Assembly: GCA_040900165.1 (NCBI GenBank)
Contig: JBBDZM010000009.1
Location: 18,636-80,442, forward strand
Length of the DNA: 61,807 bases
Direction: 5' to 3'
Origin: Patescibacteria group bacterium
GTDB lineage: Bacteria; Patescibacteriota; UBA1384; 2-12-FULL-50-11
Made by a program: the position numbers and the translations under genes. Below are positions 800 to 51,845 of the stretch, piece by piece (position 1 is the first letter of the stretch; each line of letters begins with the position of its first letter). The notes beneath the pieces were generated by a model. That model searched no databases. It was given only the letters and a program-made list of their open reading frames with translations, and was not told the origin of the DNA.

Positions 800-1481
800 A
801 CTCAACGACATCAACTAAGTAGTTACTATTGCCGTCCTTGAGGGCAAATGACCAGCTAAATAATTTGGGATTGATAGTCGGATCGGCAGCGGCAGTCTTG
901 GTTACAAGTAAGTCTTGCGATGTTTCAGGGATATAAAGGCGAATTTCATTATTGAGCAGGTACAAATAGGCATTATTGAATCGATAGACTTTTTCTGGTG
1001 TTTGGGAGAAACGAGTGATTAGCTTTGAGCCGTCGTAAAGCTCGCTACGCACCAAACTTAATCCGGTGCTAAGTTTGCCGATATCAACGAAGCGGTAGTT
1101 TTTGGCAAGCGTAGTTTTGAGCGGGGCGATAGCAACCATCAGGACGTCTTTAACTAAACCAACCTGACCGGGGCGTAAGTGGAATGATTTTTCGTAGCTA
1201 TAAAAACCGGCCCGTTTAATCTCAAGTTCGTAGGAACCAGGATTAAGGTTGCGTTTTTCAAACGGTAGGGTGTTAGAGACTTTGAGGCCGTTGAGCCAAA
1301 CGGTGACGTTAGAAATTTTACTATCGACGGCAATAACCGATGTTTGCTCGAAGGTGCCGCTGGCTTTGTCGTAGCTTAGGCCGTTGACCCAAATCAAAGA
1401 GAAGATAGCGATTGTCACAAAGGCGGTGGTGCCGAACAATCCGACCAGAAAGTTCTGGAGAAGTCGCTCTTTTCGCGTCAT
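771..1481 (-). CDS. PEGA domain-containing membrane protein
   Basis: Start moved to the internal ATG (MTRKERLL...), which is followed by a TM helix. PEGA-like segment NLNPGSYELEIKRAGFYSYEKSFHLRPGQV. The upstream part of the 326-aa track ORF overlaps mreB and looks non-protein-like. Confidence 0.7.
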   Translation of the reverse strand: MTRKERLLQNFLVGLFGTTAFVTIAIFSLIWVNGLSYDKASGTFEQTSVIAVDSKISNVTVWLNGLKVSNTLPFEKRNLNPGSYELEIKRAGFYSYEKSFHLRPGQVGLVKDVLMVAIAPLKTTLAKNYRFVDIGKLSTGLSLVRSELYDGSKLITRFSQTPEKVYRFNNAYLYLLNNEIRLYIPETSQDLLVTKTAAADPTINPKLFSWSFALKDGNSNYLVDVVESSVAAVTSP

Positions 1482-1557
1482 TTTAGCAAGTGTAGCACCG
1501 TTGGAGCGAAAATGCTTTGTTAAGGGGAAAATTGCTGGTAGTATTTGGTCTGTTAAT

Positions 1558-2565
1558 ATGGTTAGAAAAATTGGCATCGATTTGGGCACAAATAATATCC
1601 TGATTTTTATTCCCGGACAGGGGATAGTTATTGATGAGCCAGCCGTTGTGGCTATTGATGCCTTCGATAATAAAATTGTCGCCTTTGGCGAAGAAGCCAA
1701 GAAAATGCTCGGCAAAACTCCCGACAGCATTATTGCCGCCCGGCCGCTCAAAGACGGCGTTATCGCTAACTTTAAAGTGACCGAGGCAATGTTGCGCTAT
1801 TTTATCAACCGAATTTCCGGCCGGCTAAGATTATTTCGGCCGGATATTATGGTGGCCGTACCGGTGGGTGCGACATCGACCGAGCGACGGGCGGTGATTG
1901 ATGCCTGCGTTTCGGCCGGCGCTAAAAAAGCTTATTTAATCAAAGAGCCGATCGCCGCCGCTCTGGGGGCTAACGTGCCGATCGCCGCCGCCGAAGGTCA
2001 CCTAGTTATTGATATCGGCGGGGGAACTACCGAGGTAGCGGTAATTTCGCTTGGTGATGTAGTGGCCTCAACATCGGTACGGGTGGGCGGTAATAAAATG
2101 GATACTGCCATCGCCAACTATATCCGCAAAAAATATTTGTTGGTGATCGGCGAGCAAACGGCCGAGATGCTTAAGATAAAGGTTGGCTCGGTATTGCCGA
2201 TGAAAAAGGAATTAACAACCGAATTGTCGGGAACCAACTCCGTTACCGGTCTGCCCGAGAGTGTGTTGGTTAACTCCAGCGATGTGATGAACGCCGTTCA
2301 GGAAGAGCTCAAAGAGATTATCGGTGCCGTTAAGGCTGTGCTTCAAAAAACTCCGCCCGAGCTGGCAGCTGATATTATGGACAAAGGAATGATTATGACT
2401 GGCGGGGGATCGCTACTACGAGATATGGACGAGTTGTTTACCAAGGTCACCGGTGTGCCCTGCCAACTCTCCGAAGATCCGCGACTTTGTGTGGTCCGAG
2501 GAACAGGGATTGCCGTTGAACACCTAGACGAATACGTCCGCTCGGTCCTGTGGGCCAAGCGATGA
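1558..2565 (+). CDS. mreB: Rod shape-determining protein MreB
   Basis: MVRKIGIDLGTNN start, actin-fold phosphate motifs (DIGGGTTEVAV, MTGGGSLL). Start set at ATG 1558 inside the longer track ORF. Confidence 0.95.
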   Translation: MVRKIGIDLGTNNILIFIPGQGIVIDEPAVVAIDAFDNKIVAFGEEAKKMLGKTPDSIIAARPLKDGVIANFKVTEAMLRYFINRISGRLRLFRPDIMVAVPVGATSTERRAVIDACVSAGAKKAYLIKEPIAAALGANVPIAAAEGHLVIDIGGGTTEVAVISLGDVVASTSVRVGGNKMDTAIANYIRKKYLLVIGEQTAEMLKIKVGSVLPMKKELTTELSGTNSVTGLPESVLVNSSDVMNAVQEELKEIIGAVKAVLQKTPPELAADIMDKGMIMTGGGSLLRDMDELFTKVTGVPCQLSEDPRLCVVRGTGIAVEHLDEYVRSVLWAKR

Positions 2566-5026: not shown

Positions 5027-7525
5027 ATGAAAGACAACAACCAGCCAGAGGGTCACATCAACCGCCTAAGCGAGACGGCTCAAAAGATTCTTAACGACGC
5101 CGAGCTCTACGCCAAGGCACTTAACTCCGGCTTTGACACGCATCACTTACTAATCGGCATCGCCAGCAACCCCGGGACACTAGCCTACGAGTGGCTAAGG
5201 GAGGTTTACGTGACGCCCGAGCGGCTTAGCTACGCCCTCCACTCCAACAACAGTTTGCTCAAAACGAAAGAAATAATCTCCGTCGATTTAAAGAGGGCTT
5301 TAATTACTGCCCATAAAAAGGCCGCCAAATACAACACCCCAACCGTTGATTCGGAGCACCTACTGCTATCGCTAGTCTGCGCCAAGGACTCCAACGCCTA
5401 CCAAATATTATTATTATTAGAAGTCGATCCCAAGCTCTTGCGCGATCAGATCGAGGAGTATTTCGACCAACTCCAAGACGGCGTTGATGACGACGATGAC
5501 GATATCGAACAGCCCAACAATTTTTCCCAACCAACCAGTCGAGAATTGCCCCAGTCGGCTCAGCAAACCCGAGCCAAATCAGCGATCGATTACTTTACCA
5601 CCGATTTAACCAAGCTCGCCAAAGACCATAAGCTCGATCCGGTCATTGGCCGCCAAAAAGAAATCACCCGAATGACCCAAATATTAATCCGCCGGGTCAA
5701 AAATAACCCGGTCCTAACAGGTGAGGCCGGTGTCGGCAAAACCGCCATCGTCGAAGGCCTGGCGCAAAAGATTGCTGCCGGCGATGTCCCTACCCAGCTG
5801 GCCGACAAACGGGTTTTAAGCTTGGATTTAGCGCTGTTGATATCGGGCACCACTTACCGCGGACAGTTTGAGGAACGAACCAAACGGCTCGTCGATGAAA
5901 TTATTAAATCCGGTAATGTCATCCTCTTTGTTGACGAGCTCCACACTATTGTCGGGGCTGGCGCCGCCGAAGGATCGATCGATTTAAGCAACATCCTAAA
6001 ACCAGCGCTGGCCAAAGGACAGTTGCGATTAATCGGTGCCACCACTAACGATGAGTATCGCAAATACATCGAAAAGGATCCGGCGCTGGAGCGCCGGTTG
6101 CAGAGAGTCAATGTCGACGAGCCCAGTGTTGAGGAAACGGTGGCAATTCTTGCCGGCTTAAAAACCGCTTACGAGAAACATCACAACGTCATAATTGAGC
6201 AGGAGGCGATCGCCGCCGCCGCCGATCTGTCTAAACGCTACATCTCCGACCGATTCTTACCCGATAAGGCCATTGACTTAATTGACGAAGCCGCCGCCGC
6301 TACCCAGCTAGAGGAAAAACAGCTTAAAACTCATAACCGATTGACTGATTTGGAGAAACGTCGTAAACGGGCTAAAGGCGAGCATCTCAAACACGCCGAG
6401 AACTTGGAGTACGAAAAGGCCGCCGAGTGGCGGGTGTTGGAGTTTAAATTAATCGATGAAATCGAGAAATTAAAAGCTAAGTTACCGAAACGCTCCAAAA
6501 CCCGCGCCATTACTCGCGAAGACATCGCCAAAATTGTCTCAATGTGGACCGGCGTGCCGGTCCAAGCCCTGGCTAAAACCGATAAAATTCGCCTGACCAA
6601 CCTGGAGAAAAACTTGTCCGAGTTTATCGTTGGCCAACAGCAGGCAATTAAAACCATCGCCTCGGCGATTCGCCGTTCCAGCACTGGCGTTGGCGACCCA
6701 AACCGACCGCTCGGATCGTTTATTTTCCTTGGCCCAACCGGTGTCGGTAAAACCGAGTTAGCTAAAGTGTTAGCCCGGGAAGTCTACGGCCGAGAGGAAG
6801 CGTTGATCAAGGTAGATATGAGTGAATTTATGGAAAAACATAATGTTTCACGTTTAGTCGGCGCTCCTCCCGGATATATCGGCTACGAAGACGCCGGCAA
6901 ACTAACCGAATCAATCCGTCGCCAACCCTATTCAGTGGTCTTACTTGACGAAATCGAAAAAGCCCACCCCGATGTCTTTAATATGCTCCTTCAGGTAATG
7001 GAGGACGGCTACTTGACCGACGCCAAAGGCCGAAAGGTCAACTTTAAAAACACCATCTTAATTATGACCTCCAATATTGGGATGAGCGAGCTCAATCGCC
7101 AAGCGGCGATTGGCTTTAAAACAATCGGCGATAAATCGACCGAACAGCGCTATGAAGAGATTAAGAGCAAGATTCAGGACGAACTCAAACAGCATTTCCG
7201 CCCGGAGTTTATGAATCGCTTAGATAAGACGATTATCTTCCGCCCGCTGGGCAAGCCGGAGGTCAAAGAAATTGTCCGCCGCCAAATCCAGCTCTTAAGC
7301 GACCGGCTGCTGCCGGAGGGAATTGAAATTCAGGTGGCGCCAGAGGCAGTCAGCTTTCTGGCCGAAAAGGGCTTCGACCCAGAGTTTGGCGCCCGGCCGG
7401 TCCGGCGAGTGATTACTGAATACATTGAAGACCCACTTTCCGAATTATTGCTGACCGGACGGCTGTCGAAATCCGCCCCCATACGGGTGTTGCGCAAAGG
7501 CGCCAAGCTAGCACTAATAAAATAG
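5027..7525 (+). CDS. clpC: ATP-dependent Clp protease ATP-binding subunit ClpC-type
   Basis: Clp_N repeats, two AAA modules ([16 protein letters not shown]) and a UVR-like EYEKAAEWR linker. Confidence 0.95.
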
Positions 7526-7532
7526 TGCTAGC

Positions 7533-7593
7533 GAATTAAGAAGTACGAATTAAGAATTAAGATTTTTATATTCATAATTCATAATTCTTCCCC
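7533..7593. repeat. Heptamer-periodic imperfect hairpin (GAATTAA units facing NTAATTC units)
   Basis: GAATTAA-type heptamers at 7533, 7540, 7547 and 7554 face TTCATAA units at 7571 and 7578. The gaatta/taattc blocks pair, with A-A mismatches every 7 nt. Ends in ttcttcccc. Confidence 0.7.
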
Positions 7594-7662
7594 TAGGTCT
7601 TGACTTTTCCACCGTTTTATGGTATGGTTGGCGCGTCATCCTCACGGATGAGGTACAAAGAC

Positions 7663-7947
7663 ATGAAAATCAAGTTATGGATCTTTCTCGTAGTAGTCGG
7701 GATTCTCCTTGTGTTATTACATGAAGAGATGACTGGCGGAATGACAATTCTGTCAGATATTCCCGACGATCCGAGCGTCAGCGATGGCTGGCCATGGTGC
7801 ATCGGAGCCACCGGCATTTTGTCGGTTGTCTTGGGCACCGTAATCTGTTTCGTTGAAAGGATTCAGCGGAGCAACGACCGGCTTGACGGAAGAGATGTTC
7901 GAGCCGAGGAGCGCCGACGGCGCACCCTCGAGCAACTCTCCCAATGA
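7663..7947 (+). CDS. Small membrane protein, two predicted TM helices and an Arg-rich C-terminus
   Basis: ATG 7663 follows ggatgagg. MKIKLWIFLVVVGILLVLL and WCIGATGILSVVLGTVICFV hydrophobic segments. No recognisable family. Confidence 0.55.
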   Translation: MKIKLWIFLVVVGILLVLLHEEMTGGMTILSDIPDDPSVSDGWPWCIGATGILSVVLGTVICFVERIQRSNDRLDGRDVRAEERRRRTLEQLSQ

Positions 7948-7989
7948 CTCATAAAGGCCCTCAAGCACATCGTGCAAGCGGGCCTTTCT

Positions 7990-8033
7990 CATAATCATAA
8001 TTCGTAATTCATAATTCTTAATTCTTCTTCCCC
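7990..8033. repeat. Tandem heptamer array (NTAATTC)x4-5 ending in ttcttcttcccc
   Basis: ataattc, gtaattc, ataattc and ttaattc at 7997-8024. A direct-repeat relative of the right arm of the 7533-7593 element, so the two arrays bracket the small ORF. Confidence 0.7.
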
Positions 8034-8092
8034 AACTTTCGGTTGACGTTCGGTTTTCCACTTATCCACAGAGTTTTCCCCGAACATTAGCC

Positions 8093-8120
8093 AAAAGAAA
8101 AAGGGCCGCTGATGCGGCCC
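8093..8120 (-). terminator. Intrinsic terminator of the LuxR-type gene
   Basis: gggccgc-tgat-gcggccc (8103-8120), followed on the minus strand by tttttctttt. Confidence 0.7.
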
Positions 8121-8177
8121 GATGAAAGTCTTGTGATCGCTCTCCGAGTAGAATCGGGGAGCTTCCGTGTGTTGGAC

Positions 8178-8462
8178 TTAGGATTCCTCTTGGTCTTGCT
8201 CAAAGAACGGCTCAAAAGGAATCAGACAAAGTCGAGTGGCGTTCCTAACCGCCTGTATCCGGTTGTTAACTTGAAGTTTGTCATAGATGTTGGCCAGGTG
8301 AAAATCCACCGTCCGCTTCGAAACGACCAGCCGGTCAGCAGCTTCCTTGCTGGAGTGGCCTTGAGCGATTAAGCTCAAAACCTTAATTTCTGTGGGCGTG
8401 AGGCGCACGCCGCGCTGGGGAACAATCCCCTGAATCGGTTGAGGTGCTACAGCTACAGCCAT
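8178..8462 (-). CDS. LuxR/GerE-type helix-turn-helix transcriptional regulator (stand-alone DNA-binding domain)
   Basis: LTPTEIKVLSLIAQGHSSKEAADRLVVSKRTVDFHLANIYDKLQV matches the GerE HTH pattern. Confidence 0.85.
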   Translation of the reverse strand: MAVAVAPQPIQGIVPQRGVRLTPTEIKVLSLIAQGHSSKEAADRLVVSKRTVDFHLANIYDKLQVNNRIQAVRNATRLCLIPFEPFFEQDQEES

Positions 8463-8544
8463 AAAGTTCTCGTTCCCTCGCTTAAGTAAGCAGGGGAGAG
8501 TTATCTTACCGCAATTATGCTCAAAAATCTAGTCTTGGGTGGTA

Positions 8545-8575
8545 TTGACAAGTTTGGTATTTGTTCGGCTATGAT
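8545..8575 (+). promoter_or_regulatory. Promoter with an embedded putative LexA operator (GTTT-N7-GTTC)
   Basis: TTGACA 8545-8550, GTTTggtatttGTTC 8552-8566, TATGAT 8570-8575, ATG 6 nt further on (leaderless geometry). Confidence 0.55.
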
Positions 8576-8581
8576 AGCGAC

Positions 8582-8848
8582 ATGACTAATGTTGCCGTTG
8601 AGTCATTTGAACAGGTACAAGAGCCAATCCGGGTGGTGGCTAGTTTCGATGGCCCGAAGGTACGATTGCACTCGTTTGAGTGGCGGGGACGAATCTACCA
8701 AGTGGAAACCGTCAACCTTTTCCACATTGAAAAAGACGCTAAAAAGTCGCTCTACCATTTTGCCGTTTCTTCCGAAGGGAACGATTACGACATTGTCTTT
8801 AACCCGATTAGCTTGGCTTGGAAACTTCAGGAAGTCGTCAACGCTTGA
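8582..8848 (+). CDS. Hypothetical protein, putative SOS-regulated
   Basis: ATG 8582 lies right after the -10 element. The 88-aa product has no recognisable motif. Confidence 0.55.
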   Translation: MTNVAVESFEQVQEPIRVVASFDGPKVRLHSFEWRGRIYQVETVNLFHIEKDAKKSLYHFAVSSEGNDYDIVFNPISLAWKLQEVVNA

Positions 8849-8905
8849 CAGGCTCTGGCACAAAAAATAGTATTAGCGACAGTGTGCACATTCTACGGAG
8901 GGAAT

Positions 8906-9172
8906 ATGAGTAGGCCGGAGTACTTGATACTACTGCGCCCGACTAATGACGGCTGGCGAGCCGTTATTTTAAAGGGCCAGGAGCAGATCTGCCCGATTCT
9001 GCCAGCGACCAGGGAAAAACCAACCGTATCTGGGGAGTGGTGGCTGGATTATCTGATTAAACCATCGCCGGAGATTGACCAGCTCCACTGGGAGCCCCTC
9101 AATATGGCTATCCAACAAGTTCCGGGGAAAATTCCCCACGACCTTGCTTGCATCCTGATTCGACATCTTTAA
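8906..9172 (+). CDS. Hypothetical protein, probably co-transcribed with 8582-8848
   Basis: ATG 8906 is preceded by ggaggg. The 88-aa product has no recognisable motif. Confidence 0.55.
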   Translation: MSRPEYLILLRPTNDGWRAVILKGQEQICPILPATREKPTVSGEWWLDYLIKPSPEIDQLHWEPLNMAIQQVPGKIPHDLACILIRHL

Positions 9173-9206
9173 AGGCGCGTCAACCGCGCTTTCTCTTTTT
9201 TATCCA

Positions 9207-9240
9207 TTGACTGTTCGGCTTTTGTTCGCCACTGTAGAGT
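9207..9240 (+). promoter_or_regulatory. Promoter with an embedded putative LexA operator (GTTC-N7-GTTC) upstream of dinB
   Basis: TTGACT 9207-9212 is followed directly by GTTCggcttttGTTC 9213-9227. Candidate -10 is TAGAGT at 9235-9240. Confidence 0.55.
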
Positions 9241-9393
9241 ATATGGAGGAGAAAGTGTTTTTTATGACATTTGCAGGCAATTTTGCATGGCTCGACGTAG
9301 TCGAAAAATTGCCGAAAGTTAAGGCCCGAGACACGCTGGGTCGAGCGGCCGGTCATAAAAAAGATTTTCTCCTCCATAACCAAGGCGTAACAA

Positions 9394-10803
9394 ATGGCCA
9401 TCATCCTCCATCTTGACGTCAACTCTTACTACGCCACGATGGAACAACAGGCCTACCCGAGCTTGCGCGGTAAACCGATTGGGGTGGCGGGCAAGGGTAG
9501 GGGAGAGCGCACCGTTATGGTCGGTGCTTCGATTGAAGCCAAAAAGCTCGGTGTCCGGGGCATTATGCCCACCTGGGAGGCCAAAAAACTCTGCCCGCAG
9601 ATTATTATCGTCCCGGCCAACTACGACCGCTATATTTTTACTAGCAAGCGAATTTTTGCCCTGCTCGAGCGTTTCAGCCCAAAGGTAGAGATTTTTTCGA
9701 TTGATGAAGCCTTTCTGGAGTTACCAACTCCAGAAAGCTCGAAACTCGAAGCACGAAATACGAAACAAGTTTTAAATTTCATAAATTCTAATTTTGAGAT
9801 TGTTTCGGATTTAGGATTTAGAATTTCGGATTTCTGCCAACCAAAAAACTTACCCTACCTTTACGCCATAAAGACGGCTATTCAAATAAAACAGCTCATC
9901 AAAAGTCATATTGGCAGCTGGGTAAGCGTTTCTGTTGGTATTTCCTACGGCCGGACTTTGGCCAAACTGGCTAGCGAGCTGGAAAAACCAGACGGGCTAG
10001 TAGTGATTCGCCCAGAAAACTTCGCCAAAATCGCCGCCCAAACACCAATTGAAGAGCTCTGCGGCATTGGCTGGGCTCTGCAGCCACGGTTGAACCAGAT
10101 GGGAATAAAAACCATTGCCGAACTAGGGGCAATGCCGCTAGAAATGCTCGTAACGGCTTTTGGGCCGCATACCGGCAGTTGGTTGCACCGGATCGGTAAC
10201 GGCATTGACGACGGACAACTGCGCTCGTTCCGAGAACTACCGCAAGAAAAATCCGTTGGCCATTCCTACACTTTGCCGCGCGACATCACCAACCCGGAGG
10301 ATGCTAAAAGGTCAATGTTGCTACTGGCCGAGCGGGTGGCGGTGCGACTGCGCCGCAAGGGATTACTGGCCAGGGGCGTTAATGTTTATATCCGTTTCGG
10401 GGATAAAACCGGCTTCGGGCAACATCTACTGACTAAAACTTATACCGCCGACGGCTACCAACTCTACCAATGGGCACAGAAATTACTGGAAGCTGTACCA
10501 CAAGGCAAACCAATCCGTTTAATTGCTATCAGCGCCTACGAGCTGGTTAAACACGTTGAGCATTCCCGCTCACTGTTTCTGGACGACCATCACCACGAAA
10601 AGCTGTTGGGGGCGCTCGACAAAATCAACAACCGCTACGGCGAATTTGCTGTCCACCGAGCCGCGTTGTCACGAGTGAAACAGCGGATTTTCAAACTGCC
10701 CGATGGTCGTAATAAAGGGCTGTACACGCCAGAGCTGGAGAGCGACCAGACCACTTTACGCCGTCGCTCCATTTCCACCAGCCCCTTTTTAAAACGGCTT
10801 TAA
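9394..10803 (+). CDS. dinB: DNA polymerase IV (Y-family) carrying an in-frame insertion of about 38 aa
   Basis: LHLDVNSYYATME, SIDEAFLEL, SVGISYGRTLAKLASELEKPDG and SVGHSYT motifs. Extra segment at residues 116-153. Confidence 0.9.
   Translation: MAIILHLDVNSYYATMEQQAYPSLRGKPIGVAGKGRGERTVMVGASIEAKKLGVRGIMPTWEAKKLCPQIIIVPANYDRYIFTSKRIFALLERFSPKVEIFSIDEAFLELPTPESSKLEARNTKQVLNFINSNFEIVSDLGFRISDFCQPKNLPYLYAIKTAIQIKQLIKSHIGSWVSVSVGISYGRTLAKLASELEKPDGLVVIRPENFAKIAAQTPIEELCGIGWALQPRLNQMGIKTIAELGAMPLEMLVTAFGPHTGSWLHRIGNGIDDGQLRSFRELPQEKSVGHSYTLPRDITNPEDAKRSMLLLAERVAVRLRRKGLLARGVNVYIRFGDKTGFGQHLLTKTYTADGYQLYQWAQKLLEAVPQGKPIRLIAISAYELVKHVEHSRSLFLDDHHHEKLLGALDKINNRYGEFAVHRAALSRVKQRIFKLPDGRNKGLYTPELESDQTTLRRRSISTSPFLKRL
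9739..9852 (+). repeat. Heptamer-periodic hairpin element inserted in frame within dinB
   Basis: CGAAACT, CGAAGCA, CGAAATA and CGAAACA units face GATTTAG, GATTTAG, AATTTCG and GATTTCT units. Inner arms cgaaacaa/ttgtttcg pair. Translates as SKLEARNTKQVLNFINSNFEIVSDLGFRISDF. Confidence 0.7.
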
Positions 10804-10850
10804 TAGAGTATTATTCGCTCAAACCGTCTCTGACGGCGCACGAGGAAACT

Positions 10851-11258
10851 ATGAAATTAATCGGATTTCTTGTTCTGGTAGTGGGGTTCGGCTTGGGTTT
10901 AGTAAAGATATACTTTGGTCTTACGGATAATAACGCCGTACAGGCCGTCCAAGGGCTGCTAACGATGCTCGGAACGCTCTGTCTATGGTGTGGAGTTGTT
11001 ATACTCTTCTTAAACTCCTCAAAAAACGAACCAAGAACTGGCGAAAGAGTTCAGGTCGTTGAGGTTATTGTTGGAGGCCTGCTCTCTCCGCACAAGGCGA
11101 TGATGGTAGCCGATAGCAAACGGCAATATGAGGACATGTTCAGAGTCTACTACGCCCCACTCAAAGACCTGCCAAACGGCAACCAAACCCTTAAGGGACA
11201 ACGACTGCTCTACTCGATGGACAACAAGTGGTACGAAGATCCCAGCCCCGCGGAGTAA
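10851..11258 (+). CDS. Hypothetical membrane protein (two N-terminal TM helices plus a soluble C-domain)
   Basis: Hydrophobic N-terminal 55 aa. A terminator hairpin ccccgcg..cgcgggg follows the stop. Confidence 0.6.
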   Translation: MKLIGFLVLVVGFGLGLVKIYFGLTDNNAVQAVQGLLTMLGTLCLWCGVVILFLNSSKNEPRTGERVQVVEVIVGGLLSPHKAMMVADSKRQYEDMFRVYYAPLKDLPNGNQTLKGQRLLYSMDNKWYEDPSPAE

Positions 11259-11345
11259 TTTCGCGGGGTTTTCTCTGGATTTTTTTACACGATAAACGTA
11301 TACTATTTAGGCATTCGCACCTGTCAGCCAGACAAGGAAGTTGCT

Positions 11346-50723: not shown

Positions 50724-50867
50724 ACGCGTTCCTTTCGAGGTTTATTTACTTCCCTATTCTACTCTTAACCGAGCAGAAAATAAAGATTACAGAAAATAAT
50801 AAATAAAATATAATAGCTAATAAATATTGAGTCGCTCTGCGACACCTTAATTATTATCTTATATCTA

Positions 50868-51845
50868 TTATCTATTCTTCACTGCTTGCCACTTGGCATA
50901 GCTCTCTAAAAATGGCTCGATTTTGCCATCTAGAGTATCTATCGTGGCGCTGGTTTCGTAGCCGCTGCGCAAGTCCTTAACCATTTGGTAGGGCTGGAGC
51001 ACGTAGGAACGGATTTGATTGCCCCAGGAGGCTAAGATTGAGCCGCCTTTTAGGTCACTTTGCTCCACTCGCCGCTTAGCGTCTTCCAAAATCTGTAGTT
51101 TGGCTTGGAGTATTTTCATTGCCTGCTGTTTGTTTTGTAGTTGACTGCGCTCGTTCTGGCAGGTAACAACAATCTTACTCGGTACGTGAGTGATTCGCAC
51201 CGCTGAATCGGTGGTGTTAACGCCCTGCCCCCCGTGGCCGCCGGCGCGAAAGACATCGATTCGTAGATCCTCGGGTTTAATCACAAAATCGTCGTCGTCA
51301 GTTTCCGGGACAACCTCCACTAGCGCAAACGAAGTATGGCGAGATTTGCTCGCATCAAACGGGCTAATCCGCACTAACCGGTGGACGCCGTTCTCGCCTT
51401 TGAGCTTGCCGTAAGCGCGGAAGCCTTTGAGATAAAGGGTGGCGCTCTTGATGCCGGCTTCCTCGCCGGTTGATTTGTCGAGTAGCTCGGCCTTAAAACT
51501 AGCCTGTTCGGCGTAGCGGCTGTACATTCGCAGCAGCATTTCCGCCCAATCCTGGGCTTCGGTGCCGCCCGAGCCAGCGTGAACCGATAGATAGCAGTTG
51601 GCGTTATCGTGCTTGCCGGTAAAGATGGCTTCTTTCTCTAGTTCGTCCAGCTCGTGTTCAGACTCGGCGACTTCGTATTTTAAAATAAAATCCTCCAAGT
51701 GTTTGAGCTCTTGAGCGGCTTTGCCGGCTTTCTCGTGATCCGACCAAAAATCCGGGTCTTTCATCTGCTCGGTAATCGCCTCCAGCCGAGCTTGCTTGCC
51801 CGGAATATCGAGGATTTTGGCTAGTTCGGCCTTGCGTTCGGTCAT
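50868..51845 (-). CDS. prfB: Peptide chain release factor 2, single uninterrupted ORF
   Basis: SPF tripeptide (RISPFDA), GGQ (GGHGGQGVN). No CTT TGA frameshift site upstream. Confidence 0.92.
   Translation of the reverse strand: MTERKAELAKILDIPGKQARLEAITEQMKDPDFWSDHEKAGKAAQELKHLEDFILKYEVAESEHELDELEKEAIFTGKHDNANCYLSVHAGSGGTEAQDWAEMLLRMYSRYAEQASFKAELLDKSTGEEAGIKSATLYLKGFRAYGKLKGENGVHRLVRISPFDASKSRHTSFALVEVVPETDDDDFVIKPEDLRIDVFRAGGHGGQGVNTTDSAVRITHVPSKIVVTCQNERSQLQNKQQAMKILQAKLQILEDAKRRVEQSDLKGGSILASWGNQIRSYVLQPYQMVKDLRSGYETSATIDTLDGKIEPFLESYAKWQAVKNR

Follow-up and report, generated by a model that had tools for sequence, protein, structure and literature searches.

The 23S rRNA intervening-sequence protein, S23p, is a four-helix bundle. 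Directly upstream of the S23p open reading frame (ORF), the intervening sequence of Coxiella carries tandem GACAGAT heptamers, two or three according to strain, and one degenerate copy; an RNase III site lies at the first heptamer repeat, and the origin and function of S23p intervening sequences have been unclear for more than 25 years (PMC4990558). The Rickettsia palindromic elements (RPEs; Ogata et al. 2000) are described, in PMC10969869 and PMC3184786, as selfish palindromes translated inside housekeeping genes. Here we analyze a stretch of 61,807 nucleotides from a Patescibacteria group bacterium (GCA_040900165.1, contig JBBDZM010000009.1, positions 18,636 to 80,442 of the forward strand; the window hereafter), in which the DNA polymerase IV gene, dinB, contains an in-frame hairpin made of 7-nucleotide (nt) units. 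Taken as a whole, the data are best explained if this segment is a copy without an ORF, approximately 100 nt in length, of a selfish palindromic element that is dispersed and has heptamer arms around a conserved core, an explanation that we consider likely. The RPEs are its closest counterpart functionally, and the S23p intervening sequences are its closest counterpart structurally.

The dinB gene (9394 to 10803, plus strand) is an intact ORF encoding 469 amino acids. Its product matched the Pfam domains IMS (9e-35), IMS_C (1e-19), and IMS_HHH_1 above their cut-offs in a profile search, its best PDB matches were DNA polymerase IV chains, and the catalytic residues D8, D104, and E105 were invariant in the DinB alignment (A1). 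The gene has the palm and fingers (IMS), helix-hairpin-helix thumb, little finger, and catalytic acids of a Y-family polymerase IV. The window is part of contig C9 of the source genome (G000), a 589,614-bp draft of 20 contigs that is 93% complete. We refer to genomes of the same genus as G001 to G003 and to DinB homolog proteins by P-numbers; the relatives compared are labeled Patescibacteria, Candidatus Berkelbacteria, or 'Saccharimonadales,' and genes elsewhere in G000 are crude ORF calls.

Relative to its nearest orthologs, dinB contains an extra segment at 9727 to 9843 on the plus strand (TPESSKLEARNTKQVLNFINSNFEIVSDLGFRISDFCQP), whose boundaries, drawn from the ortholog alignment, the spacing, and the guanine-plus-cytosine (GC) content, are uncertain by a few bases. 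The spacing at this site is 73 residues in DinB versus the canonical 34 found in 88 of 117 homologs, and the insert therefore comprises 39 residues, or 117 nt. The first-pass annotation was right that an extra segment exists here, although it put the size at about 38 residues. In the palm domain, the segment separates the catalytic SIDEAF strand from the helix that follows. Solved polymerase IV chains align to residues 4 to 111 and 162 to 421, with 9 chain residues in the gap where DinB has 50, which agrees with the roughly 10 residues that the annotation had given for E. coli polymerase IV, and the Pfam IMS match spans DinB residues 7 to 195 using just 148 profile positions. The GC content is 0.33 in the insert versus 0.52 in the remainder of dinB.

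Within the insert lies the core element (9736 to 9834, plus strand), a heptamer-armed palindrome of approximately 100 nt and 30% GC that matched our covariance model R1 over its full length (positions 1 to 107; 103.2 bits, E = 1e-16). The 5′ arm (9740 to 9767) is a tandem array of CGAAACT, CGAAGCA, CGAAATA, and CGAAACA, reported by Tandem Repeats Finder (TRF) at period 7 as 4.0 copies of CGAAACA, and the 3′ arm (9803 to 9834) is a tandem array of TTTCGGA, TTTAGGA, TTTAGAA, TTTCGGA, and TTTC, reported at the same period as 4.6 copies of TTTCGGA. Both TRF and an inverted-repeat search thus recovered the 7-nt units facing approximate complements that had been seen by eye. The arms form an imperfect inverted repeat of 39 nt, 72% complementary, and include a perfect 8-bp core stem (CGAAACAA, 9761 to 9768, facing TTGTTTCG, 9800 to 9807). 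Between the halves of this stem is a 31-nt AT-rich loop (9769 to 9799) with motifs conserved in the family alignment (A2).

The dinB segment belongs to a family of repeats dispersed through the genome. Using nhmmer and model R1, which was built from ten copies, we found approximately 14 copies in G000, the dinB copy included (27 matches counting both strands); nhmmer with the dinB segment as the query returned approximately 13 further full-length relatives, and the G000 copies are 75 to 80% identical to the one in dinB. Their shared architecture is [C-N-AAA-Y-N]n, GAAACAAAT, the conserved AT-rich loop, ATTTGTTTC, and [GGATTTN]n (A2). The dinB segment is the sole significant R1 match within the window, and most of the other copies are intergenic, several of them lying 4 to 30 bp from the ends of neighboring genes. 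A search of window positions 7450 to 9950 against Rfam gave no family match at E values up to 1. We also tried a loose core pattern, RAAACAA-N(12-42)-TTGTTTY, across the relatives, and dropped it for the covariance model; it was uninformative because terminator-like AAAACAA..TTGTTTT matches and a reversed control were equally common. Among the tandem repeats of G000, a period of 7 is the most frequent (63 TRF rows), with many of the arrays occurring as inverted pairs.

Two copies outside the window lie inside genes. One, inside the 23S rRNA gene (L129:2333-2417; G000 C16:37832-37916, minus strand), is located approximately 165 to 250 nt from the 5′ end of the gene at a helix tip (large-subunit rRNA model positions ~150 to 176), where the loop is 93 nt versus 9 nt in the model; it is an ORF-less insertion that resembles an intervening sequence. 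The other, found in a genome search for further in-frame copies of the kind the first-pass annotation had envisaged, is a 67-nt copy in frame in mnmA (RETRNPKSEIRNGFGFRNSTFEF; L130, G000 C19:3831-5024, minus strand) with a flank-inverted hairpin on each side. The mnmA insert region is missing from many orthologs. At the same MnmA loop, G007 and G009 also carry copies of the family and G002 retains a short remnant; the heptamer arrays found there in G011 (CAATTAT) and G018 (CAGCCAT) are built of quite different units.

A hairpin inside a message may also have been co-opted as a regulatory RNA, in this case as an RNase III substrate or as a translation brake that keeps the error-prone SOS polymerase low. 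Consistent with such a role, the plus-strand RNA of 9725 to 9855 folded at −25 kcal/mol, with a z score of −2.3 relative to shuffled sequences compared to −0.3 for the minus strand, a perfect 12-bp stem adjoins the element, and dinB adjoins lexA in the window (ORF list). In addition, where the element has relatives in 23S rRNA, they occupy the position at which RNase III cuts intervening sequences in other bacteria (PMC4990558). However, 110 of the 117 DinB genes of the family have no insert, the same element occurs in unrelated genes and spacers, and its arms are complementary at just those 72% of positions. In a pair of sister genes with the insert (P0028 and P0041), the hairpin has decayed to segment minimum free energies (MFEs) of −22 and −19 kcal/mol, and its sequence is not conserved. 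Cleavage in the coding region would moreover destroy the message, yet all seven genes with the insert retain the frame and read without stops. We regard a regulatory function as unlikely.

The distribution of the insert among DinB relatives bears on when it was gained. The five closest DinB proteins in a search of 5.8 billion proteins (P0001 to P0005) lack it, the closest being 84% identical outside the gap, and so do the DinB proteins of the same-genus genomes G001 to G003. A long insert at this loop was present in 7 of the 117 homologs, and it was heptamer-periodic and family-like wherever the DNA was examined. In a tree built without the insert columns, the insert trait needs six changes and G000 is nested in an insert-free clade; forcing the insert-bearers to be monophyletic lowered the log likelihood by 420 and was rejected by the approximately unbiased (AU) test (p = 2e-42). 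R1 matches numbered 27 to 57, counting both strands, in G000, G006, G009, G011, and G027; of the genomes searched, these five and no others have a dinB insert. The covariance model found no full-length copy in the three congeners and no match in 17 other relatives. These comparisons show that the copy in all likelihood entered dinB after the lineage had split from its nearest known relatives, and that the same loop appears to have been colonized several times independently in related lineages, only where the family is abundant.

A single ancient insertion, inherited vertically, lost precisely many times, and retaining its hairpin, the junction stem included, through compensatory changes, would account for several features that the insert-bearing alleles share. 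These are the flanking residues (A/P)Y-L-x-A, hydrophobic positions on the next helix, and AF-L-E upstream. A mini-hairpin at the junction also covaries among lineages (CTGGAGT/ACTCCAG in G000, CTTGAGC/GCTCAAG in G011, and CTCGAGC/GCTCGAG in G006), and the mnmA insert is common to G000, G002, G007, and G009. Besides the AU test just described, which rejects a single clade of insert-bearers, counting on the tree requires at least seven separate in-frame losses under this scenario versus four gains. The inserts are confined to genomes in which the family is now abundant, their junctions differ by lineage, with or without an inverted flank copy and after either ELP(T/A) or E(I/L), and, relative to the core, the frame of the G027 copy is a different one. 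Inherited inserts also decay fast, as described below, and an ancient one should therefore no longer resemble a family member. The patchy occurrence of the family and the tree pattern together fit repeated recent insertion where the family is active, and they fit one old insertion with many precise losses poorly; we hold the latter to be improbable.

The protein appears to tolerate the insert without making use of it. AlphaFold2 gave predicted local distance difference test (pLDDT) values of 55 to 68 for residues 111 to 150 and of approximately 90 in both flanks, and the insert site is a loop in solved polymerase IV structures. The sister proteins P0028 and P0041, which inherited one insert, are identical at 352 of 408 positions (86%) without gaps outside it, but at only 9 of 32 positions (28%) with 4 gap positions inside it. 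Together with the decay of their hairpins, this leads us to conclude that neither the insert peptide nor the hairpin is under visible constraint; because inherited inserts decay quickly, the insert behaves as a tolerated passenger rather than as a selected module. The copy landed in a loop of the palm that comes after the catalytic SIDE strand and accommodates extra residues. Since the insert is free of stops in the reading frame and adds a whole number of codons, it is translated, as a 39-residue, low-confidence excursion, and the polymerase stays intact.

The insert peptide could instead be a selected protein module, for example, a new interaction surface or a lid on the palm. A long insertion is present at this loop in human Pol kappa. 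The helix that follows carries a hydrophobic stripe (L, I/V, I/V/L) in insert-bearers in place of the D and K of insert-free proteins, suggesting that the insert packs on it, and AlphaFold placed short helices at residues 123 to 132 and 144 to 147. Against these stand the low AlphaFold confidence throughout the insert, the 28% identity with indels between the sister inserts, and the absence of the insert from the closest relatives. The peptide composition, furthermore, is dictated by the heptamer units in any frame (SKLETRN and SDLGFRI types) and recurs in ValRS and MnmA. A selected module is, in our judgment, very unlikely.

These results bear directly on what the first-pass annotation had proposed for dinB. 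Its central idea, that a heptamer-hairpin repeat element of this genome landed in the gene and is tolerated in frame, is borne out, since the segment belongs, over its full length, to a dispersed family and the closest relatives lack it. An alignment with orthologs, which it had proposed as a check, showed no insert in the five closest DinB relatives or in the three same-genus genomes, and the orthologs have either no such segment or heptamer-periodic DNA at the site, rather than sharing a homologous protein segment free of that periodicity. The suggested surface loop also agrees with the low pLDDT, with the loop in solved structures, and with the divergence of the sister inserts. The reading frame is indeed kept without stops, as had been pointed out, but this is less surprising than it was made to appear, with 29 of 84 copy-by-frame combinations of the family reading open. 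Stop-free reading comes easily because CGAAA-type units avoid stop codons; by a back-of-envelope estimate, a random 30%-GC sequence of the length of the insert would be stop-free in approximately 6% of cases. A 7-nt unit read over three phases yields the same 7-residue repeat, of the SKLETRN and SDLGFRI types, in any frame.

Growth of the array on the spot, by slippage and palindrome expansion from host sequence that happened to resemble a unit, could be entertained since the arm unit TTTCGAG is similar to the host codons TTT-CTN-GAG, the one MnmA loop holds arrays of the quite different units CAATTAT in G011 and CAGCCAT in G018, and heptamer simple repeats are overrepresented in many bacteria (PMC4692102). 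However, the dinB segment shares nonrepetitive core and loop motifs (GAAACAA..AAATTT..ATTGTTTC) with approximately 13 other loci and with other genomes, at a model E value of 1e-16, and local slippage therefore cannot produce it; we rate this explanation as highly improbable. The draft is a metagenome assembly of 20 contigs with runs of N, but a repeat copy misjoined into dinB by the assembler is scarcely credible given that both junctions are in frame in an intact ORF with conserved flanks, that 2,410 nt identical to window positions 8894 to 11303, insert included, are present in GCA_040881295.1 (JBBEDM010000024.1:41655-44064; L161) on a 57-kb contig of different length, that the exact DinB protein occurs on three contigs, and that comparable inserts occupy this loop in six other assemblies.

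The 5′ junction of the dinB copy offers a clue to how the dispersed element may have been inserted. A repeat search (I4) identified a perfect 12-bp hairpin there, CTTTCTGGAGTT-acc-AACTCCAGAAAG (9711 to 9737, plus strand), whose left arm is the host FLEL codons and whose right arm is an inverted copy of them that opens the insert, so that the order is host FLEL codons, 3 to 5 nt, inverted copy, and first arm unit. Other lineages have junctions of their own, TTTCTTGAGC-tcccg-GCTCAAGAAA in G011 and CTCGAGCT-tcc-AGCTCGAG in G006. Folded as DNA, 9705 to 9845, which includes the junction hairpin, gave −24.4 kcal/mol (z = −4.8; 0 of 200 shuffles better). Perfect hairpins whose stems reach 12 bp or more number only five, the dinB junction among them, in 508 kb of coding interior, and their rarity indicates that a hairpin of this kind next to the element is not there by chance. 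Among intergenic copies, we observed seven abutting hairpins compared to approximately 3.6 expected at the noncoding density of 2.0 per kb (a rough estimate), and hairpin adjacency is significant only for copies inside genes.

We suggest that insertion probably occurred by snap-back and template switching at arm-unit microhomology, which would account for the junction hairpin. In such a scheme, the nascent 3′ end would snap back on GTT-acc-AAC and copy a few host bases, and copying would then switch template into an element copy at the microhomology GAAAG; the copy at C19:7219 begins GAAAGCACGAAA. Host codons resembling the arm units (TTT-CTN-GAG / GAA-AT), together with selection for a permissive loop, may be what makes this site a hot spot. 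Alternatively, the junction hairpin may reflect compensatory maintenance of a selected stem.

A second set of observations links the dinB family to S23p genes. In 16 of the 21 S23p loci examined from six genomes, inverted arrays spanning the gene exceeded the shuffled 95th percentile, and tandem heptamers lie beside the S23p start in the cassettes of G000, G009, G006, G027, and G036. Two cassettes, G009:C23 and G006:C12, have arms of the dinB family, and in those of G009:C23, 28 of 38 positions and, in the 3′ arm, 32 of 35 agree with the dinB arms, more than in any of 500 shuffles. In the full-length cassettes of relatives (L149 and L147), the S23p gene is located at the position of the AT-rich loop of the dinB copy, and the S23p start codon forms the end of AAACAAATTCAAATG, a motif conserved in the ORF-less copies. 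Across 41 genomes, the number of S23p genes correlated with the number of R1 matches (Spearman 0.64; 2 × 2 table, 17/6/4/14), in statistics that ignore phylogeny. The single S23p (PF05635) gene of G000 (C11:1249-1598; 135 bits) lies in a cassette (L137:1218-1657) flanked by the inverted heptamer arrays AGATTTAAGAATATAGATTAAAGATTT and AACTCTTAAATCTTTAATCTTAAATCT (27 nt, 85% complementary); the array at C11:1218-1248 stands directly before the ATG, and a GCTAGC-aaa-GCTAGC hairpin abuts the left arm.

From this similarity of sequence and layout, we infer that the dinB hairpin would be an internally deleted, ORF-less, nonautonomous derivative of an S23p cassette, and that by analogy it may stand to these cassettes as a MITE (miniature inverted-repeat transposable element) stands to its parent element. 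More tentatively, and as a possibility to which we give well under even weight, the S23p cassettes may be the full-length form of a widespread selfish class, in which S23p recognizes the 7-nt units and the ORF-less hairpins colonize rRNA tips, spacers, and permissive protein loops by snap-back copying. If so, one mechanism would underlie rRNA intervening sequences, S23p function, and the excess of heptamer repeats in bacterial genomes, and it would also explain the repeated gain of inserts at the same protein loops in Patescibacteria.

Several observations weigh against insertion of a selfish element or against its link to S23p. No clean target-site duplication was seen at the dinB copy, nor a common duplication among the other copies. 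The direct repeats CCAAC (9724 and 9837, 113 nt apart) and TTTCTG (9712 and 9831, 119 nt apart) have spacings that are not multiples of 3 and do not fit an in-frame gain of 117 nt; a 17-nt host duplication, followed by a 6-nt loss and a compensating indel in the next 15 nt, is speculation. A profile search of the 93%-complete G000 found no Y1/RAYT (PF01797), TnpB (PF07282), DDE_Tnp_1 (PF01609), rve (PF00665), or IS110 (PF01548) protein. The dinB copy is as similar to the dinB inserts of other lineages (71 to 83%) as to the copies in its own genome (75 to 80%), so similarity does not show its source, and the mnmA-site remnant in G002 indicates that the congeners are not wholly free of the family. 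With respect to S23p, G013 has elements without an S23p gene, six genomes have S23p genes without R1 matches, and the only S23p cassette of G000 uses other units (AAGATTT), leaving the dinB family without a cognate full-length copy in that genome; we also know of no reaction that S23p catalyzes.

The host flanks present a further difficulty, as the features shared by insert-bearing alleles, Y-L-x-A with the hydrophobic stripe on the next helix and AF-L-E upstream, are not by themselves explained by independent insertion. At window positions 9850 to 9900 (DinB residues ~153 to 170), all seven insert-bearers have Y-[LI]-x-A followed by two mostly hydrophobic helix positions ([IVAS] and [IVLQK]), whereas insert-free DinB proteins have [WY]-[DEAT]-[DE]-A-V-x-I-A-K at the same helix. 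Two readings of this signature are possible: the insert may have come to pack on the helix convergently, or the flank may have a common origin. Flank co-conversion or homing-like transfer was examined as well: identity to the nearest relative is 0.42 to 0.50 over approximately 12 codons 3′ of the insert versus 0.74 overall, in a stretch that is variable in all orthologs.

Other heptamer arrays occur in the window and elsewhere in G000. An intergenic hairpin of the units GAATTAA and ATTCATA (the latter also read as ATAATTC) lies at 7533 to 7587, just after a clpC-like gene (TRF; DNA fold z = −2.2); it is like the dinB insert in kind and belongs to a different family (R1 E = 0.38). At 7989 to 8024, TRF reported a single intergenic array of 5.3 TCATAAT units with no inverted partner (R1 E = 9.3), and 7985 to 8040 forms no hairpin (MFE of 0). 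The first-pass annotation had taken both, at 7533 to 7593 and 7990 to 8033, for the same kind of heptamer hairpin as that in dinB; the 7-nt period is indeed common to all three, but the units differ and the second forms no hairpin. Positions 50794 to 50876 hold a heptamer hairpin of a third class (TRF and fold), with AAATAAT / TATTATC arms around a GTCGC..GCGAC mini-hairpin, which has sister copies at C9:90208-90285 and C17:7916-8006. In this class (AATAGAT/ATCTATT-type arms), a conserved GC mini-hairpin, GAGTCGC-nnnn-GCGACAC, lies inside in either orientation.

Arrays of other classes are also in frame in long ORFs of G000, at C15:12589-13257 (minus), C9:10260-13097 (minus), C15:29681-31888 (plus), C15:28002-29105 (plus), C1:5286-6641 (minus), and C15:2584-4950 (minus). 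By eye these ORFs look like UDG family 4, LeuRS, ValRS (two sites), TsaD, a phosphomutase, and PpsA, names unconfirmed by a family search; one site in the ORF named ValRS by eye encodes GNSKLETLNSK. Further DinB loops, in P0024, P0027 (= L003), P0007, P0104, P0003, P0068, and P0072, have in-frame inserts that resemble translated GC-rich palindromes. One such insert, LPATPGLAW(Q/R)AG, lies in the GKG-GERTV loop, and others, SPRAKSRG or LPRAESRG, lie in the little finger of DinB orthologs; PLPRAKSRG is present in G000 ValRS too. These LPATPGLAW- and PRAKSRG-type inserts suggest a second family of small coding hairpins. We also considered a reverse transcriptase as the mobilizer of the R1 element, and rejected it. 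The sole one in G000 belongs to a diversity-generating retroelement (L128; G000 C18:1-3357), tracks the element weakly (rho = 0.36), and is present in element-free genomes. That locus comprises the reverse transcriptase with its GNLTSQ motif (1078 to 2148, minus strand), an Avd-like four-helix ORF (2021 to 2443), and a template/variable repeat pair ending ...LRVREVVS and ...LRVREIVS.

The dinB insert has several implications. Even the smallest bacterial genomes, here one of 590 kb, hold translated selfish DNA inside essential genes, as Rickettsia does, although the element type differs. Such inserts inflate protein length, give the appearance of 'lineage-specific loops,' and can lead alignments and structure predictions astray. 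The repeated independent colonization of one DinB loop, and of the MnmA loop, is a natural experiment on the tolerance of proteins to insertion, and the flank-inverted junction hairpin points to a mechanism by which DNA is copied in. Taken together, the arm match to S23p cassettes, the copy in 23S rRNA, and the heptamers of Coxiella (PMC4990558) suggest a single kind of element.

A literature search found no publication on heptamer-armed hairpins inside Patescibacteria genes, and the family differs in one respect or another from each described type of repeat. REP/RAYT systems combine GC-rich palindromes of 20 to 40 nt, termed REP (repetitive extragenic palindromic) sequences, with a Y1 gene for the REP-associated tyrosine transposase (RAYT), whereas this element is approximately 100 nt long, has 30% GC, and has no Y1_Tnp match. 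The heptanucleotide repeats of bacteria, i.e., the short tandemly repeated repetitive (STRR) sequences of cyanobacteria and the GGGAATC-type repeats of Xanthomonas and Nostoc, similarly have approximately four 7-nt units with one or two variable positions, a location near gene ends, and a variable unit number (PMC4692102). These are direct arrays, however, mostly intergenic, G-rich, and quadruplex-forming (PMC4692102), while the dinB family consists of A/T-rich inverted pairs around a conserved core and occurs in frame in genes. Palindromic amphipathic repeat coding elements (PARCELs) share the dyad symmetry in coding DNA, the patchy distribution, and the probable horizontal spread, but they consist of protein repeats of 25 residues that form arrays in accessory ORFs, often membrane-targeted ones, as opposed to single hairpins in housekeeping enzymes.

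Like a MITE, the element is short, noncoding, and multicopy, has inverted-repeat ends, seems to be derived by internal deletion, and is occasionally fused in frame to host ORFs. It differs from MITEs in that no transposase-bearing parent was found, the parent gene encoding instead a small four-helix-bundle protein, and in that an inverted copy of the host flank takes the place of a clean target-site duplication at the junction. With S23p intervening sequences it shares terminal inverted repeats that form a long stem, a patchy, selfish-looking distribution, one copy at a 23S rRNA helix tip in G000, and variable tandem heptamers upstream of the S23p start, which are found both in Coxiella (PMC4990558) and in the Patescibacteria cassettes. 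The classical intervening sequences of Coxiella burnetii, Leptospira, and Salmonella are described only in rRNA genes (PMC4990558). The dinB copy, in contrast, has a 31-nt loop in place of an ORF, lies in a protein-coding gene, and, as judged from its sequence, is translated rather than excised; without an ORF and outside rRNA, it is not a strict member of that class.

The likeness to RPEs extends furthest. Both are dispersed families of palindromic repeats in small genomes, RPEs being 100 to 150 nt long, with copies between genes and in frame in housekeeping genes, where they are translated at fold-compatible sites and behave selfishly. The dinB family has each of these features, being made of dispersed, multicopy palindromes, with in-frame copies in conserved genes that are absent from orthologs and with a fold-compatible site of insertion. 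It differs in belonging to another phylum, in having arms of tandem 7-nt units that give a permuted 7-residue repeat in any frame, in recolonizing one protein loop in separate lineages, and in having S23p-bearing full-length relatives and a copy in 23S rRNA. The family would thus work like the RPEs, to which we liken it by description rather than by membership.

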